Shown in pieces: positions 1,397 through 51,277 of a stretch of 64,000 nucleotides of DNA. A model generated the notes under the pieces. That model did no database searches, was not told where the DNA came from, and saw nothing but the letters and a program-made list of their open reading frames with translations. Both the position numbers and the translations under genes were made by a program. Position 1 is the stretch's first letter; every line of letters begins with the position of its first letter. Source of the stretch: Dictyostelium discoideum (lineage: Eukaryota); contig CM000155.2 of assembly GCA_000004695.1 (NCBI GenBank), positions 3,136,001 through 3,200,000 on the forward strand, in the 5' to 3' direction.

Positions 1397-1469
1397 CGCC
1401 CAAAGGGGGGCTCGAACCCCCGACCACAAGGTTAAAAGCCTTGCGCTCTACCGACTGAGCTATCTGGGC
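1397..1469 (-). tRNA. tRNA-Lys (anticodon UUU)
   Basis: The reverse complement folds as a 73-nt cloverleaf (GCCCAGA acceptor, anticodon loop CTTTTAA, T-arm GGGGGTTCGAGCCCCC). It is identical to the + strand copy at 5444. Confidence 0.9.
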
Positions 1470-1516
1470 TTTGGATGAAAAAATATTTTTTAAAAAATAT
1501 AATATATCTAATTTCA

Positions 1517-1978
1517 GATCGAAAAAAACAAACAACAACAACAATCTCTTTTTTTGATTATTTCATTTTTCATATAAAAAAGACTTAAAAAACAAATAAA
1601 TAAATAAATAAACTATTTTAAAAAGCCATCTTTTTACTTTATTGTAATTTATTATTTGTTTCGTTTTGAGAATTTTGCGTAGCAAAATTTTCAAAAAAAA
1701 AGCAAAAAATAATCAGATCGAAAAAAACAAACAACAACAACAATCTCTTTTTTTGATTATTTCATTTTTCATATAAAAAAGACTTAAAAAACAAATAAAT
1801 AAATAAATAAACTATTTTAAAAAGCCATCTTTTTACTTTATTGTAATTTATTATTTGTTTCGTTTTGAGAATTTTGCGTAGCAAAATTTTCAAAAAAAAA
1901 GCAAAAAATAATCAGATCGAAAAAAACAAACAACAACAATCTCTTTTTTTGATTATTTCATTTTTCATATAAAAAAGA

Positions 1979-1985
<7 letters not shown>
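1517..1985 (+). repeat. Tandem array of the TRE5-A A-module (199-bp unit, about 2.4 copies)
   Basis: GATCGAAAAAAACAAACAACAAC starts at 1517, 1716 and 1915, with near-identical units. Confidence 0.85.
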
Positions 1986-2014
<29 letters not shown>

Positions 2015-2090
2015 GGAACCCAAGTTAATCAGAAAATTTCCAGATTTTTAACTTTTTAAAGAAAAATAAAAAAAATAGAAAGAAAATAAG

Positions 2091-3425
2091 ATGAAAATCA
2101 CAAACAACACCACAAATATTAAGCAACACAAATGCCTACAAAAAATAAGCGAAATTGTGGATAAAACTCAATTAAAAAAAAAACAATTCAAATACGTCAT
2201 AAACATCAATCACGAACCAGACGATAAAATAAAAAAAGATTTAGAAAAAAGTTTGGACAAAAAAGATGTTTTAATCAAAAGTAATAATACATTCAAAATT
2301 CTCACAGACAGTATTAGTACAGTAATCTATTTTGTAAATATGTTTGATGCAGAATTAAAAGGACAATTTATAACCACTATAAGACCAAAAAATATGTATA
2401 CAGATTTTGATTGGTATAAATCACTCACAGAAATAGAATGGGTAATAGAAAATGAAGGATGTAAACTAATTAAATTAGAAATTAAAGGCGAAACTCTAAT
2501 TATCAAAACAGTGAAAAGAGTCGTAGAAGAATTTGACACTATCATTGAACTAGACAATCTAACATTAATTGGACACTCCAACAAAGGATGGAGAGATCAA
2601 ACCTCATTACCAGAAAATCAAGAAGAAAACAAAAATAAAAAACAATCAGATGAACAACAACCACAATCTACATCAGAACAAATACCAAAACAAGGAAAAA
2701 GAACAATCATTATCCCACCAATCACATCCTCATCTAATGATAAAACATTTATGGCCCTAGATGATACAGCTCAAAAGGTAATAGAAGCATCACTAGAAAA
2801 CGTAGATGAACTAACAAGAATAGAGAATGAGATCAATACACAATCGATAAACAATCAAGAAATTAAAACAAAATCAGAAAAACCTATCGAACCACCATCT
2901 CCATACAATACACCAATAAAACAACACGGCGAAACAAAGGGACTAACAACGGAAGAAAAACTTAGAGAGGCAAATGATATCTTCGACTTCACCAGCCCAA
3001 ACACTGATGCAATAAGAAAAATAGAATTCCCACTTTCAATCCCTTCAAATCAATGGTTCTTCTCCTCTCCAATAAAACATATCATGAGTTTCAGCCCAAC
3101 CTATGGTACACCATCGAAAATTATCGATTCACCAAGTAAATTGTTAAACACACCAAAAAAGAAACAACAAGACAAAACAAACAAGACCAACAAAACACCA
3201 GTCAAACCAAAATTGGGTGAATATGGACAAAAAAGCATAAAAACAAAAATGGATGAAGATATAGACAACTTCAACAAGGAAATTCTAAAACAAATCAATA
3301 AATCAAAAAACCCCACAAACACACAAGACCAACAACACAACGAACAAAGTAAAGATCAGTTAGAAGACAAAATAAACCAGAAACTTCAAAAGGTAGATAA
3401 AAATCTACCCCAAATAAAACTATAA
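2091..3425 (+). CDS. TRE5-A ORF1 protein (444 aa)
   Basis: An intact ORF that begins MKITNNTTNIKQHKCLQKISE. The same N-terminus recurs in truncated form at 3824, 36860(-), 38860(-) and 40322(-). Confidence 0.85.
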   Translation: MKITNNTTNIKQHKCLQKISEIVDKTQLKKKQFKYVININHEPDDKIKKDLEKSLDKKDVLIKSNNTFKILTDSISTVIYFVNMFDAELKGQFITTIRPKNMYTDFDWYKSLTEIEWVIENEGCKLIKLEIKGETLIIKTVKRVVEEFDTIIELDNLTLIGHSNKGWRDQTSLPENQEENKNKKQSDEQQPQSTSEQIPKQGKRTIIIPPITSSSNDKTFMALDDTAQKVIEASLENVDELTRIENEINTQSINNQEIKTKSEKPIEPPSPYNTPIKQHGETKGLTTEEKLREANDIFDFTSPNTDAIRKIEFPLSIPSNQWFFSSPIKHIMSFSPTYGTPSKIIDSPSKLLNTPKKKQQDKTNKTNKTPVKPKLGEYGQKSIKTKMDEDIDNFNKEILKQINKSKNPTNTQDQQHNEQSKDQLEDKINQKLQKVDKNLPQIKL

Positions 3426-3429
3426 AGAA

Positions 3430-3663
3430 AAACACAATAAGAATAGGTGTTTGGAACATCCAAGGATCCAACACCATCCAATCTGCCAGCATAATAAACA
3501 CCGTTTTAGACAACAACAAGCTGGACGCAGCACTTCTAACTGAAACAAATATAAAAACAAATAAAATTTACTCAATAAATCAACAATATAAAAACAAAAT
3601 AACACACCACGCACCAATTGATAAAACAGGACAAGGGGTGTCACAAATCATCATCAACACCCG
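3430..3663 (+). pseudogene. TRE5-A ORF2 remnant (the N-terminus of the endonuclease only, joined directly to the 3' UTR)
   Basis: It translates to IGVWNIQGSNT...LLTETN and then stops. The last ~60 bp match the ORF2 3' UTR that is also seen at 36985-37100(-). Confidence 0.6.
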
Positions 3664-3721
3664 CAATAGAACTTCCTAAACATCTCAAAAAATACAATAA
3701 TTCACTCAGTACTTTCTATAA

Positions 3722-3780
<59 letters not shown>

Positions 3781-3782
<2 letters not shown>

Positions 3783-4091
3783 CAAGTTAATCAGAAAAAT
3801 AAAAAAGATAGAAAGAAAATAAAATGAAAATCACAAACAACACCACAAATATTAAGCAACACAAATGCCTACAAAAAATAAGCGAAATTGTGGATAAAAC
3901 TCAATTAAAAAAAAAACAATTCAAATACGTCATAAACATCAATCACGAACCAGACGATAAAATAAAAAAAGATTTAGAAAAAAGTTTGGACAAAAAAGAT
4001 GTTTTAATCAAAAAGACCCTGTAAAAAAAAAAAATAAATAAAATGAGATCTAGCATCTCAAGGAGAAGCAAATAATAATTGCGTTATCCAA
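3781..4091 (+). mobile_element. TRE5-A 3' B-module (contains the first 65 codons of ORF1, 3824-4020), then the C-module and an oligo(A) tail
   Basis: The C-module GACCCTGTAAAA...ATGAGATCTAGCATCTCAAGGAGAAGCAAATAATAATTGCGTTATCCAATTCAAAAAAAA ends in an A-run at 4081-4091. Confidence 0.6.
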
Positions 4092-5159
4092 TTCAAAAAA
4101 AAAAATATATCTAATTTCCAAATTCAAAATAGTGAATTAAATATTAACCAACAATTTAGTGTCTATGGAGATATTAATGATAAAACTAGCGATTATATTT
4201 TGGTTTTATACCAACAGTACAGAAGTTCTCCTGGTAATATAATAGTTAATAATGTTGAAGAACAACATCAATGTTATCAATCGAATAACGAAAATTCAAA
4301 TGTATTGGGTAAACCATTGGAAAAAGTAGAACATGGTCACGTGGAGCATTTCTCTCCAAATAGTCGAGATTGTGATAGATCAAAACCTGTAGACATCGAA
4401 ACCGATAAAAATTAGAAATTTAATTTTTTGGGTACTATTGACAGTAGAAGTTAAGAAAGTAAAGCAGAATCAACACCAACTAGTACTATTCAAGGTAGTT
4501 TAATCAGTGTATGGTCATTTGATAGATCAGTTGATCATGTTGTTTTAGGAACAACTGTAAAACATGGTATGAGTGATAGTGGTAGTTGGAAGTAACATCA
4601 AACATAATAACAATTACCATATTAAAGAACATAACAAAGTAAGTGAAAAAGTTATCTATTTAAATTCAAAAAATCCATTTGCTGAATTCTATAATCACAA
4701 ACCATTTACAAATAATTTTACTATCAATCATTAATGAGTTAAAATTTACTCAAGATATATTAAAAATTTTTTAAAATAAAAATAATTAAATAAATAAAAA
4801 TTATAAAAAGTTTAGATAATAGTTTTTTTTTTATTTATTTTTAAAAATAATCTATTTTCAATATATACTCCGCTCATTGTTGTATAAATTATAAACCAAT
4901 TAAATTTTTGATTAAAAAAAAAAGGTAAAGAAAACTGAATATTTAATCCCATTGTTTGTTTGAGATTTTAGATCCATCATCTTTTGTCCATTTCAATATT
5001 ATAAGAATCATTGAATTTTTATAATATTGATCAATCAAATATGGAAGAATATTATAATTTTAATATCAATAACCAACATCATGTCATGAATTCTATAGTT
5101 TTCATGCCACTGGTGGTGAATCGGTTGAACCAGAAGATGAATAATAAATATTTTTAGAT

Positions 5160-5352
5160 GGATGAGATATATCATCTCAAGGAGAAGCAAATAACATTTG
5201 CGCTACCCATTCAAAAGCTTCTCTTTGAGTAAATTAATGATAACTTTTTTTTGAATTGGATAACGCAATTATTAGTTTCTTTTCCTTGAGATGCTAGATT
5301 TCATTTTATTTGTAGTAATTTTACAGGGTCTTTAAAAGAGGGGTTAGTTTAC
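5160..5352. mobile_element. Inverted pair of TRE5 C-module fragments (a divergent + copy at 5160-5220 and a - copy with an oligo(A) at 5245-5352)
   Basis: CATCTCAAGGAGAAGCAAATAA...CCATTCAAAAG on the + strand faces TTTTTTTTGAATTGGATAACGCAATTATTAG...CCTTGAGATGCTAGAT, which is the reverse complement of a C-module. Confidence 0.5.
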
Positions 5353-5443: not shown

Positions 5444-5516
5444 GCCCAGATAGCTCAGTCGGTAGAGCGCAAGGCTTTTAACCTTGTGGTCGGGGGTTCG
5501 AGCCCCCCTTTGGGCG
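5444..5516 (+). tRNA. tRNA-Lys (anticodon UUU)
   Basis: GCCCAGATAGCTCAGTCGGTAGAGCGCAAGGCTTTTAACCTTGTGGTCGGGGGTTCGAGCCCCCCTTTGGGCG. Cloverleaf is intact and the discriminator is G. Confidence 0.9.
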
Positions 5517-36970: not shown

Positions 36971-37587
36971 TTTTTTTTTTTTTTTATTTATAGAAAGTAC
37001 TGAGTGAATTATTTTATTTTTTGAGATGTTTAGGAAGTGCTATTGCGTGAAGAGGTGAGTTCCATTGTCTGCTAAATTGTAATAGCTTTAGCGAGATTAA
37101 TGAGTCTAATTTATTTTATTCTTCTGGCCGTTGCTTTGATTTGATTCTTAATTTTTTGTTGTCTATGAATTATTATTTTTTTTTCATCGTGAATCAGTTT
37201 GTTTCTTTTGTACCAAATTTTTTCGAATATGATAGCTATTAAATTGGCTATTAGTGCAATTTGTAGATGGTTTAAAATCTTCACATTCCAGGTGTGAGTG
37301 GTGTGTCCACACTTAGTTAGGGTGTAGTTGAAGATTTCTTGTGTGTTTTTGATGTGGGCTTTGCAGTTGAAGAATATGTGTTCTGAAGTCTCATCTTCCC
37401 CAAACTGTTGGCATGGCATGTTGTATATTTTTGGTAGTGCTTTCAGTGTGTATCTCCATAATAAATCTCTACCTTTCATGTTTATTATTTTTTTAATTTC
37501 TTTAAATGGAAGGTGTTTGCTATTAATGTTGGTCATTATTTCTTTTTGGCCATGAATTTTTTTTTTTTTTTTTGAATTTTTGGCCAT
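36636..37587 (-). mobile_element. 5'-truncated TRE5-A fragment carrying the ORF2 C-terminal 158 codons, the ORF2 3' UTR, an A-run and the B-module (first 74 codons of ORF1). The C-module is missing.
   Basis: The ORF at 37111-37587 (GRDLLWRYTLKALP...CQQFGEDETSEHIFFNCKAH) is homologous to the ORF2 C-terminus of the full-length element. Positions 36985-37100 match 3640-3720 of copy 1. The truncated 5' end lies 39 bp from tRNA-His. Confidence 0.6.
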
Positions 37588-37625: not shown

Positions 37626-37696
37626 CGCCGTGATAGTATAGTGGTAGTACATCAGATTGTGGCTCTGTTGACCCTGGTTCGATTCCAGGTCGCGGC
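37626..37696 (+). tRNA. tRNA-His (anticodon GUG)
   Basis: GCCGTGATAGTATAGTGGTAGTACATCAGATTGTGGCTCTGTTGACCCTGGTTCGATTCCAGGTCGCGGCA aligns to the canonical tRNA-His (anticodon loop TTGTGGC, discriminator A). There is one T-T mismatch in the anticodon stem. Confidence 0.8.
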
Positions 37697-37729
37697 ACTT
37701 TTTTTTGGCAGAAACCAAAATAGATCAAG

Positions 37730-39030: not shown

Positions 39031-39249
39031 TACCATACCATCCAAAAATCTCAACTTTTGTAATAATGGCGAATAATTAAGCGACATAAATAAATTAATA
39101 TATAAAGTTTTTATCCCTGGTAAAATACAAATATAGAAATAGATCTGTAACTGAAAAGACGTTAACAAATACAAGATTCTTACTTTATTCTCAGAAATTT
39201 TACCAACAGTTTCTTTATTAAAATTAGTTTTAGTATAAATAGTAAATAA

Positions 39250-39450
39250 AATAAAAATTAATTCATTGTTGTTTTATTCCAAATTGTGCACAAACATAAC
39301 TTATAAGTAAAGCTTTTTTATATATAATATTATATATATCTCTATATTATATATAATAATATATATTATATATATTATATATAATAAAGTTTTACTTATA
39401 AGTTTTGTTTGTACACAATTTGGAATAAAACAACAATGAATTAATTTTTA
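39250..39450. repeat. Large near-perfect palindrome with arms of about 58 bp (AATTCATTGTTGTTTTATTCCAAATTGTGCACAAACATAACTTATAAGTAAAGC) around a spacer of about 85 bp of (TA)-rich sequence
   Basis: The two arms are exact reverse complements of each other. Confidence 0.75.
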
Positions 39451-39469
39451 TTTATTATTAATTATTTAT

Positions 39470-40437: not shown

Positions 40438-40705
40438 TCTTTTTTATATGAAAAATGAAATAATCAAAAAAAGAGATTGTTGTTGTTGTTTGTTTTTTTT
40501 CGATCTGATTATTTTTTGCTTTTTTTTTGAAAATTTTGCTACGCAATATTCTCAAAACGAAACAAATAATAAATTACAATAAAGTAAAAAGATGGCTTTT
40601 TAAAATAGTTTATTTATTTATTTATTTGTTTTTTAAGTCTTTTTTATATGAAAAATGAAATAATCAAAAAAAGAGATTGTTGTTGTTTGTTTTTTTTCGA
40701 TCTGT
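39948..40705 (-). mobile_element. Short TRE5-A derivative of about 760 bp (A-module x1.3, B-module with 87 codons of ORF1, C-module, A-run). It is flanked by the 14-bp direct repeats CAACTATTAATTTT at 39934-39947 and 40707-40720.
   Basis: A-module reverse complement at 40432-40505 and 40630-40705, ORF1 reverse complement at 40059-40322, C-module reverse complement at 39960-40050, T-run at 39948-39960, and the flanking TSD. Confidence 0.7.
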
Positions 40706-40773
40706 CAACTATTAATTTTTTTTTTTTTTTAATAACATCACTCAATTTGAGTGTGTTCTAGGAGAGTTTATTT

Positions 40774-40807
<34 letters not shown>

Positions 40808-40930
40808 CTTTTTTTCTTGTTATTCTTATTTTTTTTTTTATTATTATTATTATTATATTATTATTATTATTATATTATTATTATTATATTATTATTATTA
40901 TTATATTATTATTATTATTATTATTGTTAT

Positions 40931-40970
<40 letters not shown>

Positions 40971-40975
<5 letters not shown>

Positions 40976-43900
40976 AGTAGTTGGTGTTATATGAGCAGTA
41001 TGGTATGAAGTGTTCCGGGATGTTTATGGTCATGAGTTTCGAGTTCCAGTTGTGGCTGAATTTTTCGAGTCTTCTTTTTATTGATGCGGTCCGATTGATT
41101 GACTCTCGGTTATCAGTGCATCTTAGTTCTTGACGTAGTTGTTTTTCTACTATCTTTCTTGTTCTATCCCATTCGGCATCTCTCGCTTTTTTGATTTTAT
41201 GAATTATTTGGTTCTCTGTTATTATTGTAGTGTTATCGTTGAATTTTATTTGATTTCTTCTGTACCATATCGATTCCATAATGGCTCCTATCAGATTTGA
41301 TGAGAATGGTGTGAGTAGTTTTCCGAGAACTTTTTCGCTCCATGGACCGTGGTAAGTGTTGTTGGAGTCTTTACAGACCTTTTGATAGATTGAGTCGATA
41401 TTCTGTTTTATTGATTTGCATTCGAAGAAGATGTGCATAGACGATTCTTCTTCTTTACATGAGTGGCAATTCTCCCCATGGTGTTTTGGAAGTGCCTTGA
41501 GTAGATATCTCCATGCTAAGTCTCTTCCTTTGATAGTTGTGATTGATCTGGCTTCTCTGAATGGTAGAATTGGGTGATTAATGTTCTTTTGAATCAGTTT
41601 TTGACCTGTTGTTGGCTGGTGTTTGTTCCATCCCTTGTATTTGATATCCATCATGTTTCTATAGATTACTTTTAATTTTTGTTTGTTTTCGTATTTGGGT
41701 TTGACTTGGTTTAGTTTGAGAGTTATTCGCTCTCTTGGGTGGTGCAACAACTTCCAGGCTTTCCAGCATTTGATGTGAATCCTTGATAGTGAGTTTTCTT
41801 TTTCCGACTTCCAGACTTCCATATGTGGAGGGCAGTTCTGGTCGTCTTTTTCTCTGAGGTATTGTTCGTATATCCATGCTTTCTGGGCATTGGATCTGGT
41901 TGCCATATTCCAGAGTTCCAGGCCTCCAATTTCATAGTCTCTTCTGCTCCTTTCTTTTGAGATAGCCCACCTGTCCCCTTTGAATAACATGTTGGCATTA
42001 ACGTTCTCCAGTTTCTTTATGTCATTTATTTCGTTGATGTATAGTTGGAATGTTAGTTGGGACAGCAGGTATGATTTGAGGATTGTGATTCTACCTTTTA
42101 GCGTTGATGACACGCTCGAATAGCATTTTGTGAGGTTTTCCAGTTTGTTCACCGTATCATCTACTTTGCTTATTACACCTTTGCGGTTGAAGAAAAAGCC
42201 AAGATATCTTTCTTCTTCTTTCGCCCCAATTGTCTTATATTTGGTCTTTATCTTTGGGTTTTTAGTGATGCACACACATTTATTATCGTTTATTTTTGCT
42301 GCTGTGGCTTGGCAAAATTTTATAACTTTCATATCCATTTTATCTGCGTCATCTATGTTACTGGCTAGTGTGACTGTGTCGTCTGCATATTGTCCAATCT
42401 TCATCGAATTGTTCTGATTGAGTTTTATGCCTATTATGGTATTGTCTTTTCTTATTGATGTTGATAAGCATTCACATACTATAGCGAAGAGAGTTGGTGA
42501 AATTGGGTCGCCCTGTTTTGTACCTCTTCCTGCTCTGAAGGATTCAGAGAGTTGTCCATTTACCATGACCCTTATGTTGGTGTTCGTTAACATGCTTAGT
42601 ATTGTGTTTGTTATTTTCCGAGGGAACTTTAGATGGTTTAGAGTCCTTATTAACGCTTTATGAGATATTGAATCGAAGGCTTTTTCGAAGTCATAAAAGG
42701 TGATTATCGTGTTTCTATCACTCTTTTCCATTGCTAAATCCAAAGCTATAATGTTGTTGTGGAGTAGCCTTCCTGGTATAAAACCGTTCTGGTACTTTGA
42801 GATTATGTTTGGCAGGATTTTTAGTATTCTATTGTTGATTATTTTTGAGTAGATTTTGTAGTCTACGTTGAGTAACGTTATTGGTCTTCTGTTTGAGATT
42901 TCCAAGACATCCCCTTTACCTTTGTATATTGATGTAAGGATACCGTTCTTGAATTCTGTTGGAATTTCATTGTTTAAAAAGAAGTTGAATAGTTCTGTGA
43001 GGATTGGAATTAGTTTGTGTTGGTGGATTTTATAGAATGAAGATGTTATTCCATCTTCTCCTGGTGATTTACCTTCTGCTATCTTTTCTATTGCTAGCTT
43101 AACCTCATATTCTTCGATTCTGTCTTCCATCTCTGTTAATTTTTTTTTATCTATTGGTGGGTTCCAGGTGCTTAGAAGTTCTGTATGTGTTTCTTGGTCG
43201 CATTCTTTCTCTTTGAAGAGTGTCTCGTAATATTTTCTGAAGCAATCTGTTATTTCTTTTTGTTCTGTTTCGATTTTTCCATTGGATGGGTTCTTTATTC
43301 TGTGAATCTGGGAGCTCGAGTCTCTTTTTTTAAGAATAGATGTAAGGAGATTTGATGCTATTTCTTTATTGTTGATGTAGTTGATTGAGCTTTTGATCAT
43401 TCTGTCTATTCTTTCTTCTTCTTGAAGTATTGTTATTTCGTTCGATATTGTTTCTTTTTCATATTTGTTTTTTGTTTTTGTGTGTTCATTTGCTAGATTT
43501 GATAGCGTTTTTTTTCTCTCTAGTATTCTTTTCTTTTCTGTTGTAATGCATTGTTTTTTTATTTTTTTTTTGAACTTAATCCAGTATTCCGTTATGTTAA
43601 TGTTTTTTCTTTTGGTTTCCTGGTAGTGGTCGATTATTTTTTCTATCTTTTTTATTGTTTTATCTTCTTTAATTATTATTGAGTTCATTTTCCATAGGGG
43701 TGATTTGTATATTTTTGTGAAATTTGGTATTTTGAAATCCATCACTACTATGTTATGGTCTGATTTGTTTATTTTATCGATTATCTTGTACGAGTGATTG
43801 AGTTGGTGCATCTTTGTTGATAAGAATGTTCTATCGATTAGTTTATCTTTGAAGGTTGTTTTAGTTGTTGAATTTGGTAGTATTTCGGTGAGTCCTACTT

Positions 43901-44402
43901 CCATCATTAGGAATTCTATTGTTTCATTTTCTGTGAATTTTCTCTTATCGGATGATCCATCTTTGAACTTGATTTTTGCATATTTGTTGATGTTAAAGTC
44001 ACCAGTAACTATGTCTGCCTGTTCTAGATCTTCAAGGGAAATATTGTTTGAAAACCATCCTTTTCTTCTGTCATATGAGGCTGGTGCATAGATGCAAATT
44101 ATGTTGATTTCCATATTGTTTAGAATTGCAGTAAATTTTAAGATTCTGCCTTCTTTTTCTTCCAAGTTTTTAATTTCTATTTGTTCTAGGTGATTTATTG
44201 CCATTACTCCTTTTCCTCTTGCTTCTTTTCCTTTTCCTCCTGTTGAGTAATGGTTTTTGATTTGCGCTAGATTTTGATCCTTTTTTAGATTTGTTTCTGT
44301 TAGTATTGATATATCAGGTTTTATTAGGTTAATTGTATTTTTTGTCTGATTCATGCTTTTGATTGTTGAGCAACCTTGGCAATTCCAGGTCATTATTTTT
44401 AT

Positions 44403-44405
<3 letters not shown>
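40971..44405 (-). CDS. TRE5-family ORF2 polyprotein (AP endonuclease, reverse transcriptase and C-terminal Cys-rich domain), 1144 aa, apparently intact
   Basis: An uninterrupted ORF with the motifs listed above. Confidence 0.85.
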
Positions 44406-44449
<44 letters not shown>

Positions 44450-44476
44450 GTTTTTTTTTTTTTTTTTTTTTTTTTT

Positions 44477-44507
<31 letters not shown>

Positions 44508-44513
<6 letters not shown>

Positions 44514-45872
44514 AAATGAGACAGATGGAAGTATGTCTTGGAGTACTTTGGGCAATTTGTCTCTTAGTGCTGCTTCCATTAGATCTGATTCTTCCTTTGT
44601 TATTTTAGTTGGAGTTTTGTAAGGTGTTGATATTTCTTGGTGATTAGTTGTTGGGTTTGGAGATGAGTTGGATCTTTTTCTTTTTACTGTCTCTGGGGTT
44701 GCTGGAGATTCTGGATTTTGGATAGGTGACATTGTTTGTCTTTTTTTGATTGAGGCTAACCTTGGGGTTTCCTTCTTTTTTTGGTTATTTATTTTTTCTT
44801 CAAAAATTCTGTTCTCTTCTTCATTTTCGAACATCTTTCTTACCACTTCTAATGCTTCTTCATCTTCAGTTAACTCCATTTTCCTTTTCTCTTTGCTGTC
44901 AACACTATATGTTACTGTTATTGGTGGGACACGAAGTACTTTTCTCTTTTCAATATTGTTTATTGTGTTTGTCGTTTCTGTCGTTGTGGTTGTTGTAGTT
45001 GCTCTAATTGTTGTGGGTTTTTTATTTTCAATTTCGTTTTCCTTTTCTTTTTCGTTTTTGCTCTTGTCTTTGATGTTGTCATTATTGATTTCTTTATTAT
45101 TTTCTTTTCTGTTTTCTATTTTGTTTTTGTTGTTATTTTTTGATTCGCTAGTGTTTTTATGATTGGATTCTTCTTTTGATTTTATGTTTATTCTTGTGTT
45201 TTCCTTTATCTCGGGATTTGGTAGTTCCGTGATTTTTGAATTTTCTGAGATTTCGTCTTCGATTTCCTTATTTGTTTTTCTTTGATTTTTTGTTTCTTCT
45301 GTTGTAGTGAGGAATAGTATTGTTATGTGTTTACAATGTATTAGCTGGTCTTTGTGCTCTGGACTGATAATTGAGTTGAATGAGTGTATTATCAGGTTTT
45401 CACCTAAATTATCTAATTTGATTATTTCCAGTCCTTCTTCATGCAATGTTTTTTCTACTATGTCCATTGATTTTTCCCAGTTGAATGTTTTGAAGATCTT
45501 TTTTGGTTTTATTATTGCTCTGTGAACTCCTTTTAGTACTCCGTTGAAAACGTTAGAGTACTTGATTACTTGAGTTCTGCAGTCAGTGAGGATTTTGAAT
45601 TTATTCTTACTTATTATTATCTTATCATCTCCTTGTAAATGAATTTCCAATTCTGCTTTTAAGTTGTTGGAAATCTCATCTGGGATATTGATCATGAATT
45701 TATATTGTTTTAGTTCAATTTGAGTGTGGTATATTGCTTCGCTTATTTTATCAAGTGTTCTGTACGTATTTTTTAAATATTTGAACTTTGTTCTGAGTTC
45801 ATTTGATTTCTTGATTTTATCTGCCAATGTTTCTGTTGATTCTGTCATTATTGTATTTGCCAATTTATTCAT
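44508..45872 (-). CDS. TRE5-family ORF1 protein, 454 aa
   Basis: It is collinear with TRE5-A ORF1 (FKILTD..., LEIIKLDNLGENLIIHSF) and roughly 40% similar by eye. Confidence 0.8.
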
Positions 45873-45951
45873 TTCTTTTTTTTTTCTTTAAAATCTTTAT
45901 TCGACTTTAAAAATTTAAAATTCTGGAAATTCCCTGAAAGAATGTTTTCGG

Positions 45952-46026
<75 letters not shown>

Positions 46027-46147
46027 TCTTTTTTTTATATGAAAAATGAAATAATCAAATAAAAAAAGTGTTGTTGTTGATGTTTTTTCTCTTACTCTCA
46101 ACTATTAATTTTATAAAGTAACTTTATTACAACTTTTCATCAAAAAT

Positions 46148-46220
46148 GCCTGGATGGCTCAGTAGGCAGAGCGAGCGGCTGTTAACCGCTAGGTCCATGG
46201 TTCGATCCCATGTCTAGGCG
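46148..46220 (+). tRNA. tRNA-Asn (anticodon GUU)
   Basis: GCCTGGATGGCTCAGTAGGCAGAGCGAGCGGCTGTTAACCGCTAGGTCCATGGTTCGATCCCATGTCTAGGCG. Cloverleaf is intact, the anticodon loop is CTGTTAA, and the discriminator is G. Confidence 0.9.
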
Positions 46221-46250
46221 AGCTTTTAGGAAAATTTTCAATAGATCGCT

Positions 46251-46282: not shown

Positions 46283-49200
46283 TAAGGACTTGATAATCAA
46301 TTAGATATCATTGCACCTCCATCAATCACAAGACCACTCTCTTTCTTAGAAAAAAACAATAACACCATCAACATTAAGTGTTACTTTAAATCAACCACAC
46401 ATCCGTGAAGAATTAACCTCAAAAGATGACACAAGAATTCAACAAATTCACAAAAACATTCACAAACTCTTCGAAGATATACTGTCGCCATCAGCATTTA
46501 AAATAATTGGTGCAACTGCCTTCGTAAATTGCAACGTTGATAAATTAACTTCAATAATCAACCTTCAAAACCAACTTGCACTAAATATCGACAAACTCAA
46601 CTATAGATTCGATATATCATCAAATGATTATGCAATCATTAAAACATTCATTAAAACGTACTCACCCAAACATGCAAACGATGCAATTACAAACAACCTC
46701 ACTAAATTCACCAGTTGTACATCAATTGAATCATTTACTGTCACATACTCATATGCTGTTGCGTTTAAAAGTTACATTATAACATATCATCTAATTGATC
46801 ACACACACAACATTGTTGATCAAAAGATCGAACAACCATCTGGTATCACAAGATATATCAAAGCTGCAACACGTAGTGTCACTAAACACAAAATTCAACA
46901 TGCAAAAAATGCAGATATGGCAACAACTATAAAAAATGCCATCACAAACCCAAACATGAACAAAAACAATCAACCACCAAAAAACAACATTAACAACCCA
47001 CCAACCAACGAAATTGCAAATTCCAATCGCAATAATAACTCACTTCAAAATAGTGGTTCAAAAGCTATACTAAATGAATCACTTGATATTAACAATCAAT
47101 CCCAAAACAATAATGAAATTTCACACAAAAGTGATTCTTCAAATAATAATAACGGGAAAAACTCATTATCAATGAGCAATCCAACCGATCCAACAATTGT
47201 ACCACAAAAACCTCCACCATCTCAACCAAACAAACCAAGTGCACCAACTCCAAATACAATAAATACAAGAAGAAGCAGCAATGCCCTGACTACACAACCA
47301 GTCAATACTGGTGCTGCCAAACCTAGTAAGGTATGAGCTCAAAAATCAACTTTATAACATGGAATTGTAGAGGATTCACTGATAACCCAAACAATCAACA
47401 CAATTCCTACCAAAAAGCTGTTGACACACTACAACTACTTATATCAAAACTTCCACCTCGTCCAACGATCTCAATACTCACTGAACTCAATTTATCACCA
47501 TTACAACTTAGACATGATTTTCCCGATCACATCATCTCTGTCACCAAACGAGGAAATGGTGTAATCATCATTAACCATAACCCAAACACACTCAAACTCA
47601 AACACATATCAACAATTGATGGTAGAGCTATTTTAGCAGACGTTATATTTCCAAATCAATTACCAATTGGTATTCTTGGAATTTACGCACCAGCATCAAA
47701 TAATACCATCAAAAAGAATTCATATGCAACTTCACTACAAACACTTCTCCACAACCACTCAACAAACCCAATACCAAACCAATCCCAACATGTATCTATT
47801 ATCGCAGGAGATTTCAACTGTACCCACAACGACAATTCACTATTAGATGATATTATCCAATCCTACACATACCAACACCATCTAATTGATCAAGGTGAAT
47901 TTAAAAACACTCCAACTCATACACATGGTAACAGATTAGATAGAATATATACTCAATACAATAGAATAGACCCTGAAAATATATATACACAAGTCCACCA
48001 AATTCCATCTTCATTATCAGATCATAATCCAATATCAACAACAATTTCTTCACCTTTTCAAATAAATAAACATAAGAAAAGATGGATATTATCACCTGGT
48101 ACTGCAAATGACCATGAAGCAATCAATATTATCAATCATTTAATAACTAATCACAATAAAACATCAATCAATCAATTTACAAACTGGTCAAAAGTAAAAT
48201 CAAAAATTATTAAAACTCTAAAAAACTATCAATATAACAAAGACAAACAAACTCAACGTGCAAAACAAATACTATTAGAAAAAGCAGCAAAATTCAAACA
48301 TCTTGAAGAACAATGCATCGCTGAATACAATATTATATGTAACAAAAACAAATTACACCAAAACCACACAAACATATTAAAAAAACATATAAATGGAGAA
48401 ATACCTAGCAAGTATCTATCAGCAATACTAAACAAAAGATCAAAAGATGCAAAAATTGAATCAATCCAATATGGTAACATCATTACATCCGACCCCGACC
48501 AAATTGAAAATGCGTTTGTTGAATTCTACACAAATCTATATAGCTTACAAATATGTTGTCCAATTACTCACCAGCTCATACTAAACACATGGCCCATCAT
48601 AAAAAATGAATACTGGAATGGTTTAGACTCACCATTTATACAAGATGAAGTTGAAGCTGCAATTAAAACCTGTAACCCCAACAAATCACCCGGTCCAGAT
48701 GGCGTTACAAATGCATTCTACATTAATCATTTAAACCAAGTTAAACCAATTCTCACTACATTATTCAACGATATACTAGAAAATCCTCACCACATCACAA
48801 CAGAATTCACCGAAGGTCTTATACACACAATATACAAGAAAGGCAACCCCTTACTCATATCAAATCGTCGTCCCATCACACTTCTAAACACTGATTACAA
48901 GATCCTCTCAAAAGTAATCAATGCACGTCTTCTGAGAATACTTCCTTTCATCATCAACAACAACCAAACTGGTTTCGTACCCCACAGATTCATCATAGAC
49001 AACATCATCAACATCAATGAATTAATCAACTACCTCAAATCTAAAAACCTCCCTGGTATCATCACACTATTTGACTTCTTTAAAGCATTTGATTATATCT
49101 CTCACGATAGTATTAAAAGAACATTAATTCATATTGGTATACCAATAAAATTAATAAATTTAATCCACAAGCTATTATCTGACTCACAAGCAAAAATTTC

Positions 49201-51277
49201 AATTAATGGTAAAACGACCAGAAAATTCGATATTAAAAGAGGTGTAAAACAAGGTGACCCAATCTCAGCCACTTTATTTGTAATTGTAATTGAAAATTAG
49301 CAAGAACAATAAATGCAGACAATACAATAATTGGATTACCAATTTCACCCAATCCACAAATTAAAATCAAATTCACCCAATTTGCAGACGACTCTACAAC
49401 ATACAACATCAACTACGAACAACAACAACAATCAATCAAACATTTCGATAATTTCTGCGCTTCAACATCATCATCATTAAATTTTGACAAAAGTGCAATA
49501 ATAGAAATCAACCCCCACAAAATCACTGATAAACACATAATAAACAACATTCCACAATCAAAAAGAATTCCAATAACCAAAAAAGATCAATCAGAAAGAG
49601 TCCTTGGCTATTTCTTTAATCATAATGGTTTACATAGGAAATTACCAGAAACAATGAAAACACTGATCAAATCATTAGTACTATGGAAAACTAGTGGCAC
49701 AACATTAAAAACAAAAACAACCATCATAAACACCTACTCACTATCACCAATAACATATTTATCATACCTTGAAGAATTTACAAAAGATGAAGAAATTCAA
49801 ATTAATAAATTAATCTCATGGTTTATGAATTCTCCCGCAAATTCTGAATCACCAACTCTCAATACCAATTCCATTGAAAACAACTCATCAACCATCCATT
49901 CACGTGCAAAAATACCTTTGATGTGTTATGATAGATCATTAAAACCATTAAAAGAAGGTGGTTGGGGTATGTGGAATATACAACTACGACAAGTTGCTCA
50001 AAAGATTTGGATATACAACAGATTTTTACAAATGCATAAATCTGCAAATAATTCAATATACATGATAAGTTGGATGGATCAAATCATCAACAAATCAATC
50101 TCTTCTCCATACCTTATAAAAATCAAAAAAGAATGGGAAAACTATGCAACTCAAATTGGACATCTAAAAGATAAAGTTCAAATCCTACAACCAATATTAA
50201 TAAAAAATCAAACCTCTCAAACAAACACAAATAATATTCCACTACCACCAACACTCAAAGAAATCTACTCGACAATACTCAACAATCACCAATGTAAATC
50301 AAAAGACTATATTGGCAAGAAATATTCAGATCTACTTCTTACTTCGCACCAACAATCAATACAACTATTATGGAAATACACACACGACCAACTATTTGTC
50401 AAAATTCAAAAATTAAAAGATCCAAAAGGCCGTGATACAATGCAAAGATTCCATGCTAGATGTCTTCCGATTAATCATCTACACAACAAAGTTTGCCCCA
50501 TTTGCAACAATGAAATGAATAATGATCCCTATGGTCATTTGTTTTTCAATTGTCAGCACACAATCAACTTCATAAACCACGACAAATTAAAATATTTTAT
50601 ATATAAAAATTGCAATGGAAACAAAAACTGGTCACTAACAAAAAACCAAACAACAAAATTATACACACTCATTTATAAACCACAAACAAACAACAAAGCA
50701 TTTAAACCAGATCCAACTATCAATATTAATTTTGCAGAAAACGCACAATATAAAAAATACAGGTTCAACTGGAATTATATAAACACAAATCTTGATCTAG
50801 TCAGAACACACGCATATTGGAACATAATCTCATTAGTTATTCACCAAATATGGATATGGTTATGCAAATCATTATTTGACATCAATATAACTCAATCAAT
50901 TGATAATTGGAACAACCAAATAAACAACACAACACTAGATTATGATATATTAAAATCAAAATGGCACAAGCTAATAAGATTGGAATATTCAAGAACATTA
51001 TCAAACTTTAACCAATACTCAATTAAAAACAACCTCACAAAAACTCAAAAAGAAACCCAATGGTCCGAAACAATCAAAAAATTTAAAAAAGAATGGAGCA
51101 TAAACACTAACGAACCAATTCCAACAATTACACCACCAATTAATTATTAATTACCTAATCTAAAATAACATACCATTTTAAATTCACAAAAACTAAAAAA
51201 CCTAAAATAAATAAATAAAAATAAAATACTAATTGTATACTACAATAGTTTATTTATATCAAAAAAAAAAAAAAAAA
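46283..51277 (+). mobile_element. TRE3-family non-LTR retrotransposon of about 5.0 kb, inserted 62 bp downstream of tRNA-Asn and flanked by a 12-bp TSD (CTCTCAAATATC at 46271-46282 and 51278-51289). It carries a poly(A) tail at 51261-51277 and its ORFs are disrupted.
   Basis: Its sense strand is A/C-rich. ORF1 C-terminal part is at 46917-47336. ORF2 has an APE domain (ITWNCRGF) and an RT domain (FVPHRFIIDN...FADDST) that is split by a stop at 49298-49300. There is a C-terminal Cys-rich domain (CPICNNEMNNDPYGHLFFNCQH). Confidence 0.75.
47333..51150 (+). pseudogene. TRE3 ORF2, interrupted. The 47333..49300 part carries the APE domain and the N-terminal part of the RT domain, and the 49654..51150 part carries the RT C-terminal part and the zinc-finger-like domain. 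The region between them reads through only after a frame change.
   Basis: The RT motif FADDST continues in another frame just after the stop at 49300. Confidence 0.6.

Follow-up and report, generated by a model that had tools for sequence, protein, structure and literature searches.

Which retrotransposon family occupies the site just upstream of a tRNA-Asn gene in a 64,000-nt stretch of the Dictyostelium discoideum genome (assembly GCA_000004695.1, contig CM000155.2, positions 3,136,001 to 3,200,000 of the forward strand; this whole stretch is called the window below), and how might the second of its two open reading frames (ORFs) be translated across the long poly(A) tract that separates it from the first? 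We found that the element is very probably a copy of TRE5-B, a known L1-like, tRNA-gene-targeted non-long-terminal-repeat (non-LTR) retrotransposon of D. discoideum, which appears to have used target-primed reverse transcription to enter a site 49 nt upstream of tRNA-Asn and to be bicistronic, with an independently initiated ORF2. The poly(A) spacer between the ORFs is inherited in the TRE5-B lineage but unstable in length. TRE5-B itself is already known, and the two ORFs are annotated genes of the AX4 reference.

On the minus strand, positions 46097 to 40720 form a non-LTR retrotransposon of 5378 bp as assembled, in which two ORFs run without interruption. It is placed upstream of tRNA-Asn(GTT) and faces this gene head to head, with 49 nt separating the two 5' ends, an arrangement that is the signature of TRE5 elements. 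The boundaries and the target site are as follows.

40720 to 46097, minus strand: the element, assigned to TRE5-B, 5378 bp as assembled (from the sequence and comparisons)
46147 to 46221, plus strand: tRNA-Asn(GTT), the targeted gene (ARAGORN)
46098 to 46112, minus strand: 5' copy of the target-site duplication, AAAATTAATAGTTGA (the same junction is found at the orthologous locus, L003, of a second assembly)
40705 to 40719, minus strand: 3' copy of the target-site duplication, AAAATTAATAGTTGA; an older TRE5-A derivative adjoins it with its 5' end
40720 to 40730, minus strand: poly(A) tail (a run of 15 A overall, 4 of which are assignable to the target-site duplication)

An earlier reading of the same DNA (the original prediction) had described perfect 15-bp target-site duplications and a tail of 16 A. 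The duplication AAAATTAATAGTTGA is perfect at both ends (46112-46098 and 40719-40705). The terminal run, however, consists of 15 A (40730-40716), and as four of these can be assigned to the duplication, the tail comprises 11-15 A. Target-primed reverse transcription would have placed the element in this site, 49 nt upstream of tRNA-Asn(GTT), which an older TRE5-A derivative had already used, and the new insertion would have re-duplicated the 15-bp target.

Both ORFs had been predicted to be uninterrupted, and the minus-strand ORF listing together with exact matches to AX4 proteins confirmed their lengths.

44508 to 45872, minus strand: ORF1, 454 aa, identical to DDB_G0293632 / Q54BG7 (ORF listing and exact protein match)
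40971 to 44405, minus strand: ORF2, 1144 aa, identical to DDB_G0293630 / Q54BG8 (ORF listing and exact protein match)

The two proteins are residue-for-residue identical to proteins of D. discoideum AX4 chromosome 6 (3,602,379-bp contig), which are annotated there as hypothetical proteins. The APE, reverse transcriptase and zinc-finger-like domains that had been proposed for ORF2 were all recovered. Residues 2-848 of ORF2 align to residues 8-892 of human L1 ORF2p (phmmer against the PDB, E = 2.8e-57), Pfam RVT_1 matches at residues 503-737 (E = 5e-37), and Pfam Exo_endo_phos covers residues 5-217 over its whole profile, with a score under the curated cut-off. Motifs of the catalytic type, namely WN, E, D..N, SDH and YADD (the last at 673-676), were recognized as well. 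Pfam zf-RVT was not detected in the C-terminus of ORF2, and the zinc finger is seen there only as a CX2CX7HX4C motif at residues 980-996 (window 41468-41418). The order of domains in ORF2 is APE endonuclease (about 2-230), reverse transcriptase (503-737) and CX2CX7HX4C (980-996); an N-terminal APE-type endonuclease combined with an L1-type reverse transcriptase is what characterizes the L1 clade.

ORF1 differs at a single residue from the UniProt entry Q9GQ50, 'Group-specific antigen' (453/454 identical), and no Pfam family matched it. A word-indexed homologue search returned only ORF1 itself and one protein from D. cf. discoideum, and an exhaustive search returned 11 proteins among 1.84 billion; ORF1 is therefore lineage-restricted. 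An AlphaFold2 model of residues 1-195, built from a 3-sequence alignment, had a mean predicted local distance difference test score of 54, and Foldseek comparison of this model with the PDB gave template modeling scores of about 0.2 with E > 0.01; ORF1 was accordingly not assigned to any fold. In the cycle of the element, ORF1 would act as a family-restricted gag-like protein, its TRE5 relatives being proteins that bind TFIIIB, and ORF2 would supply the APE endonuclease, the reverse transcriptase and the CCHC motif.

TRE5-B was reportedly described by Glöckner et al. in 2001. It integrates like TRE5-A, and its ORF1 is 25% identical to TRE5-A ORF1 (Siol et al. 2011, PMC3159450). It lacks both a C-module and a 3' B-module; the 3' end of TRE5-C is formed by a C-module about 78% identical to that of TRE5-A (PMC3159450; PMC4559204). 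In AX4, TRE5-B has a consensus of 5971 bp and 25 copies located 34-82 bp from tRNA genes, one of which is full-length with intact ORFs, and TRE5-C has an 879-bp consensus only and no full-length copy (Spaller et al. 2016, PMC5006619).

As the TRE5-A reference for our comparisons, we used the TRE5-A.2 element of the window itself, at about 1511-4099. Between the two ORF1 proteins we found 28% identity by global MAFFT alignment and 40% identity over residues 37-169 by tblastn (133 aa, E = 3e-24), in agreement with the proposal that the element differs from TRE5-A and has a distant ORF1. BLASTP with composition adjustment gave no match between the same two proteins, which is a sensitivity artefact given the N-terminal homology detected with MAFFT and tblastn. 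At the nucleotide level, only the 5' untranslated region (UTR) is shared with TRE5-A, and the coding regions have no similarity. The spacing of 49 nt to tRNA-Asn falls within the 34-82 bp of TRE5-B, and the length of 5378 bp plus three 198-bp A-modules (the 5' units described below) would be 5972 bp, as compared with the 5971-bp consensus. The original prediction had left the choice between TRE5-B, TRE5-C and a variant; the published criteria select TRE5-B, and the lack of a C-module speaks against TRE5-C. The window copy is probably the single intact AX4 TRE5-B copy counted by Spaller et al. 2016.

With TRE5-B as published, the element has in common two ORFs, an ORF2 with APE endonuclease, reverse transcriptase and zinc finger, a position about 50 bp upstream of a tRNA gene, the lack of a C-module and of a 3' B-module, and AX4 as host. 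It departs from that description in having no complete A-module, and the inter-ORF poly(A) is unmentioned in the TRE5-B literature examined, yet it occurs in every copy. No feature was seen that would place the element outside TRE5-B. The element also resembles TRE5-A (DRE) in target preference, orientation, A-module, B-like leader, poly(A) at the A/B junction, ORF1 N-terminal domain and ORF2 domain order. In contrast, TRE5-A has a 3' B-module and a C-module, the latter carrying an antisense promoter and an essential 3' structure, and its layout of A-B-ORF1-ORF2-B-C with overlapping ORFs is not that of the present element. The two ORFs of TRE5-A had been said to abut; in the window TRE5-A they instead overlap by 25 nt (3401-3425), and ORF2, which has no ATG, is read in the -1 frame. 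Mammalian LINE-1 is similar to the element in its bicistronic RNA, non-overlapping ORFs, short non-coding spacer, CCHC motif, poly(A) tail and target-site duplication, but its spacer is of mixed sequence, it does not target tRNA genes, and the ORF1 proteins are unrelated in sequence. The inter-ORF spacer of human L1 is 63 nt long. That of mouse L1 is 40 nt (PMC3592465).

Exact-protein look-ups in a second D. discoideum assembly, GCA_054883475.1, yielded six more copies of the element (L001-L004, L007 and L008). No two of them have the same tRNA gene as neighbour (the genes are Gly-GCC, Arg-CCT, Asn-GTT, Phe-GAA, Asp-GTC and Arg-ACG), and all are placed about 39-49 nt upstream of it. The copies share the terminus GAGTAAGAG, have unrelated flanks and are each bounded by a duplication of their own; for this reason, we rejected the idea that the 15-bp duplication in the window is merely the start of an A-module. 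L003 is the orthologous locus of the window copy, with flanks that are 99.96% identical and the same duplication, and apart from A-tracts and A-modules it differs from the window copy by 1 substitution in 5188 nt. When homopolymers are set aside, 1-3 substitutions in about 5.2 kb separate the copies at the Asn, Arg-CCT and Phe tRNA genes. The amplification of TRE5-B was therefore very recent, and the same comparison bears out the view that the window copy is a recent one. ORF2 is intact in L002 and L003 and broken in L001, L004, L007 and L008, the break in L004 being shared with AX4 (DDB_G0292452, 719 aa). These copies are 5499-6308 bp long, and their length is set by the number of A-modules. 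An orthologue from the sibling species D. cf. discoideum, L005, has about 78% amino-acid identity.

The spacer between the two ORFs is the following feature.

44406 to 44507, minus strand: inter-ORF poly(A) spacer, 102 nt, A30 C A26 CC A43

It extends from the ORF1 stop codon (44510-44508) to the ORF2 ATG (44405), and its length agrees with the roughly 100 nt of poly(A) that had been predicted. It is the longest A-tract of the window, and together with the 69-nt tract of the 5' UTR makes up the two longest. By structure prediction, the spacer would be fully unpaired. In L001, L002, L003, L004, L007 and L008, the spacer is 69, 75, 79, 76, 71 and 67 nt long, respectively, and a single C is found inside the tract in three of these six copies. 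L005, a degenerate TRE5-B orthologue, has A33 followed by TC (35 nt) before the ATG, and L006, a member of a related family with an ORF2 56% identical, has exactly 21 A. As the tract was found in every copy examined and in two other lineages, the spacer is an inherited family trait and not a collapsed artefact of assembly, a concern that had been raised together with the original prediction. The comparison of spacer length among genomic copies, which had been proposed as well, thus gave a divided answer: the tract is always present, but its length varies, at 67-79 nt in the other D. discoideum copies and 102 nt here.

The AUG of ORF2 is the first AUG after the ORF1 stop codon and is located directly at the end of the tract. 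The 102-nt spacer of the window copy leaves ORF1 and ORF2 in frame. We considered a fusion of the two products by readthrough or frameshift and rejected it, as spacers of 67, 71, 76 and 79 nt occur in equally young copies and the frame is not conserved. Since the copies differ in spacer length modulo 3, neither readthrough nor programmed frameshifting can be the strategy of the family. The best-supported reading is that ORF2 is initiated independently on a bicistronic RNA, a view that we infer from the arrangement of the two ORFs. Initiation could take place by L1-type termination-reinitiation on the bicistronic RNA, or by internal entry on the unstructured A-leader, and a role of the spacer in ORF2 translation, as proposed by the original prediction, is plausible.

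Poly(A) or A-rich leaders promote cap-independent or factor-independent initiation in poxvirus late mRNAs and, through Pab1, in yeast invasive-growth mRNAs. The TRE5-B spacer is like these leaders in being a long unstructured A-tract just upstream of an AUG to which ribosomes have to come by a route other than scanning from the cap; the leaders differ in being either much shorter or placed at the 5' end of mRNAs with a single cistron, and an activity of this kind in TRE5-B is meant as a comparison only. A limited literature search on poly(A)-leader translation gave no match. In human L1, ORF2 is made by low-frequency reinitiation, for which the sequence of the spacer is dispensable (PMC4091050), and in mouse L1, internal entry at an IRES (internal ribosome entry site) has been claimed for ORF2 (PMC3592465).

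The 5' end of the element is composed of three parts.

46024 to 46097, minus strand: terminal partial A-module (GAGTAAGAG...GACTT; from blastn and comparison with other copies)
45955 to 46023, minus strand: 5' UTR poly(A) tract where the A and B modules join, with a length of 69 nt (33-42 nt in other copies)
45873 to 45954, minus strand: B-module-like leader directly preceding the ORF1 ATG, with homology to the B-module leader of TRE5-A

The description of the copy as full-length holds in so far as it starts at the canonical first nucleotide of GAGTAAGAG, as the other copies do; only a terminal partial A-module of 74 nt is present, however, and the number of complete A-modules is zero. Among the other copies, the number of complete 198-bp A-modules ranges from 1 to 8 or more, and none of the six is without one. 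A comparison of 46024-46097 with L003 4813-5900 shows that about 990 bp of the orthologous locus in GCA_054883475.1, amounting to five complete A-modules, are not in the AX4 window, and this difference represents either a collapse in the reference or a strain-specific deletion or expansion. In TRE5-A, the A-module carries the plus-strand promoter (PMC3159450). The A-modules of TRE5-B (46024-46097) and TRE5-A (1511-1710) are about 80% identical in nucleotide sequence although the coding regions show no nucleotide similarity, and this likeness points either to a strong constraint on a promoter module or to the exchange of modules between families.

Several points weigh against our reading of the locus or narrow it. 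The assignment to TRE5-B was made from published descriptions of the family, with the near-identity of ORF1 to Q9GQ50 standing in for a comparison with a deposited consensus (the supplements of PMC3159450 and PMC5006619 contain no TRE5-B sequence or accession), and the databases name the products merely 'hypothetical protein'. The element could in principle be TRE5-C or an undescribed TRE5 family, but we regard this as highly improbable. TRE5-C ends in a C-module, which the element lacks, and is known in AX4 from its 879-bp consensus and not from any full-length form. The degree of ORF1 identity to TRE5-A (28% found, 25% published) is close to that of TRE5-B, and the length would agree with the consensus if three A-modules were added; furthermore, AX4 is the genome from which the seven TRE families were catalogued, and an eighth, represented by several almost identical copies of full length, would have been noticed. 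A second difficulty comes from the assembly. At the orthologous locus, the other assembly has A79 without any C in place of a 102-nt spacer with three C's, A42 in place of A69 in the 5' UTR, and the five complete A-modules mentioned above. The long A-runs differ throughout (69/42, 102/79, 40/33, 33/27, 28/25 and 24/21 in the window and L003, respectively), and runs of up to 17 nt agree. The exact length of the spacer at the AX4 locus is uncertain. It is nevertheless very unlikely that faulty assembly of the reference has produced the spacer (or its length) and the 5' structure: the tract is present in 7/7 D. discoideum copies and in two other lineages from independent assemblies, the tract of the window is longer than those elsewhere and not collapsed, and the doubt is limited to the exact length, the C interruptions and the number of A-modules. 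The absence of any complete A-module, the presumed promoter, weighs in turn on the activity of this copy. With the A-module serving as the promoter in TRE5-A, it is doubtful that the copy as it stands in the window is autonomous, unless the reference has been collapsed, and its competence for transposition, like the mode of ORF2 translation, is something we infer. The copy might be dead, that is, non-autonomous despite its intact ORFs, since 74 nt of A-module plus A's are all that remain whereas each of the six other copies has kept a complete unit. We consider this rather unlikely, because the orthologue with five A-modules is otherwise almost identical, so that the shortage of A-modules is probably due to a collapse in the reference or to a recent deletion. 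In addition, the retained stretch is the most conserved part of the A-module, and the ORF proteins of the copy could act in trans.

Given the extreme variability in its length, a neutral origin of the spacer is a serious rival to any role in translation. According to this explanation, the spacer has no function; slippage of a polymerase or of the reverse transcriptase enlarged a short A-rich stretch, and ORF2 is translated by generic L1-type reinitiation that does not depend on the spacer sequence. The lengths of 21, 35, 67-79 and 102 nt agree well with this explanation, as does the observation that every long A-run at the locus differs between the assemblies, roughly in proportion to its length. 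Such runs are also common in the surroundings: the window has a G+C content of 23% and contains 58 A/T runs of at least 20 nt in 64 kb, about one per kb. The dispensability of the human L1 spacer for ORF2 translation (PMC4091050) and the lack of such a spacer in TRE5-A and TRE3 point in the same direction. However, three diverged lineages, whose ORF2 identity falls to 56%, have all retained an A-only spacer that abuts the ORF2 AUG, and only A, rarely C, accumulates in it. This retention suggests, at the least, that a constraint acts against sequence with structure or with an AUG. We therefore take the neutral explanation as a real possibility that falls somewhat short of being probable. Independent initiation of ORF2 remains our preferred reading of how the second ORF is translated.

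A bolder proposal, which we consider improbable, is that the A-tracts found at all module boundaries of TRE5-B (between the A-module, the B-module with ORF1, ORF2, the first part of the 3' UTR and the 3'-terminal 44 nt) are scars of template switching onto the poly(A) tails of other RNAs, and that the tract between ORF1 and ORF2 was retained as an unstructured, PABP-binding internal leader from which ribosomes could begin ORF2. If this were true, template switching would explain why the ORF1s of different TRE families are unrelated and why the A-modules of TRE5-A and TRE5-B are about 80% identical despite their unlike coding regions. The tract would then be a homopolymeric 'IRES' in a natural bicistronic eukaryotic mRNA.

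At the 3' end, two features were recognized.

40731 to 40970, minus strand: 3' UTR, consisting of A38, a TAA/TATAA-type microsatellite, A33 and a unique 44-nt end
40734 to 40757, minus strand: predicted 3'-terminal hairpin, AACACACUCA-AAU-UGAGUGAUGUU, directly before the tail

The 3' UTR (40970-40731) gave no blastn match to the B- or C-modules found elsewhere in the window. The predicted hairpin has a folding energy of -9.2 kcal/mol (z = -5.5), and none of 200 shuffled sequences was as stable. It is located where TRE5-A has its essential C-module structure and, by analogy with that structure (PMC3159450), may serve as the recognition element for the reverse transcriptase in TRE5-B.

The surroundings of the targeted gene contain other elements. 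One target upstream of tRNA-Asn has been re-used serially, as seen from the occurrence of TTAATAGTTG at 46108-46099, 40715-40706 and 39953-39944 (minus-strand reading). It is known that a single tRNA gene can be targeted sequentially (PMC5006619). Behind the TRE5-B copy, between 40703 and about 39954, lies a short TRE5-A derivative. It is made up of two A-modules, a further, partial A-module, poly(A), a B-module that carries an 87-aa start of ORF1 (40322-40059), A43, a C-module and A16. Beyond the derivative are a tiny insertion and then a solo C-module (about 39905-39826) flanked by AAAATTAATAGAT, and a further TRE5-A-like A/B/C unit is found at about 39010-38510. A large near-perfect palindrome (AATTAATTCATTGTTGTTTTATTCCAAATTGTGTACAAACAAAAC... 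and its complement) lies at 39235-39469 around an (AT)-rich centre. A 5'-truncated TRE5-type ORF2 fragment at 37150-37551 (minus strand) is 43% identical to residues 934-1068 of TRE5-B ORF2 and points to tRNA-His(GTG) at 37627-37698 (plus strand).

On the other side of the same tRNA-Asn gene, about 100 bp downstream, lies a TRE3-type element (46300-51150, plus strand). Its ORFs (46917-47336, 47333-49300 and 49654-51150; ORF2 is split in two) are 26-43% identical to TRE5-B ORF2 by tblastn, and its ORF1 and ORF2 overlap in ATGA at 47333-47336. The upstream flank of tRNA-Asn (46113-46132) and that of the tRNA-Gly gene at L001 (about 5175-5215) share GTAATAAAGTTACTYTATAAAATTAATAG, which starts about 15 nt from the tRNA gene in each case and may be the end of another tRNA-targeted element, for example a solo LTR.

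In the distant part of the window, the TRE5-A.2-type element (1511-4099, plus strand) is built of two A-modules and a partial one, a B-module, an ORF1 of 444 aa, a deleted remnant of ORF2, A57, a 3' B-module and a C-module. It is flanked by the duplication ATATATCTAATTTC and is located about 41 nt upstream of tRNA-Lys(TTT) (1397-1469, minus strand). An inverted pair of C-module-like sequences at 5170-5330 (GAGATATATCATCTCAAGGAGAAGCAAATAA... and its reverse complement) is found about 110-270 bp upstream of a second tRNA-Lys(TTT) gene (5444-5516, plus strand).

Our findings have several consequences for the TRE elements of D. discoideum. The AX4 reference appears to mis-represent the 5' A-module array and the lengths of the A-tracts of this copy. 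Although experimental work has dealt with TRE5-A only, the near-identity of copies at different tRNA genes indicates very recent mobility of TRE5-B. Within the window, three sibling TRE families show three different ORF1/ORF2 junctions, namely, an overlap in ATGA, an overlap of 25 nt in which ORF2 is in the -1 frame and has no AUG, and a poly(A) spacer of 70-100 nt followed by an AUG. This set is a natural comparison for how the second cistron is translated in LINE-like elements, and the homopolymeric spacer could be easily manipulated in the existing mbsrI retrotransposition assay.

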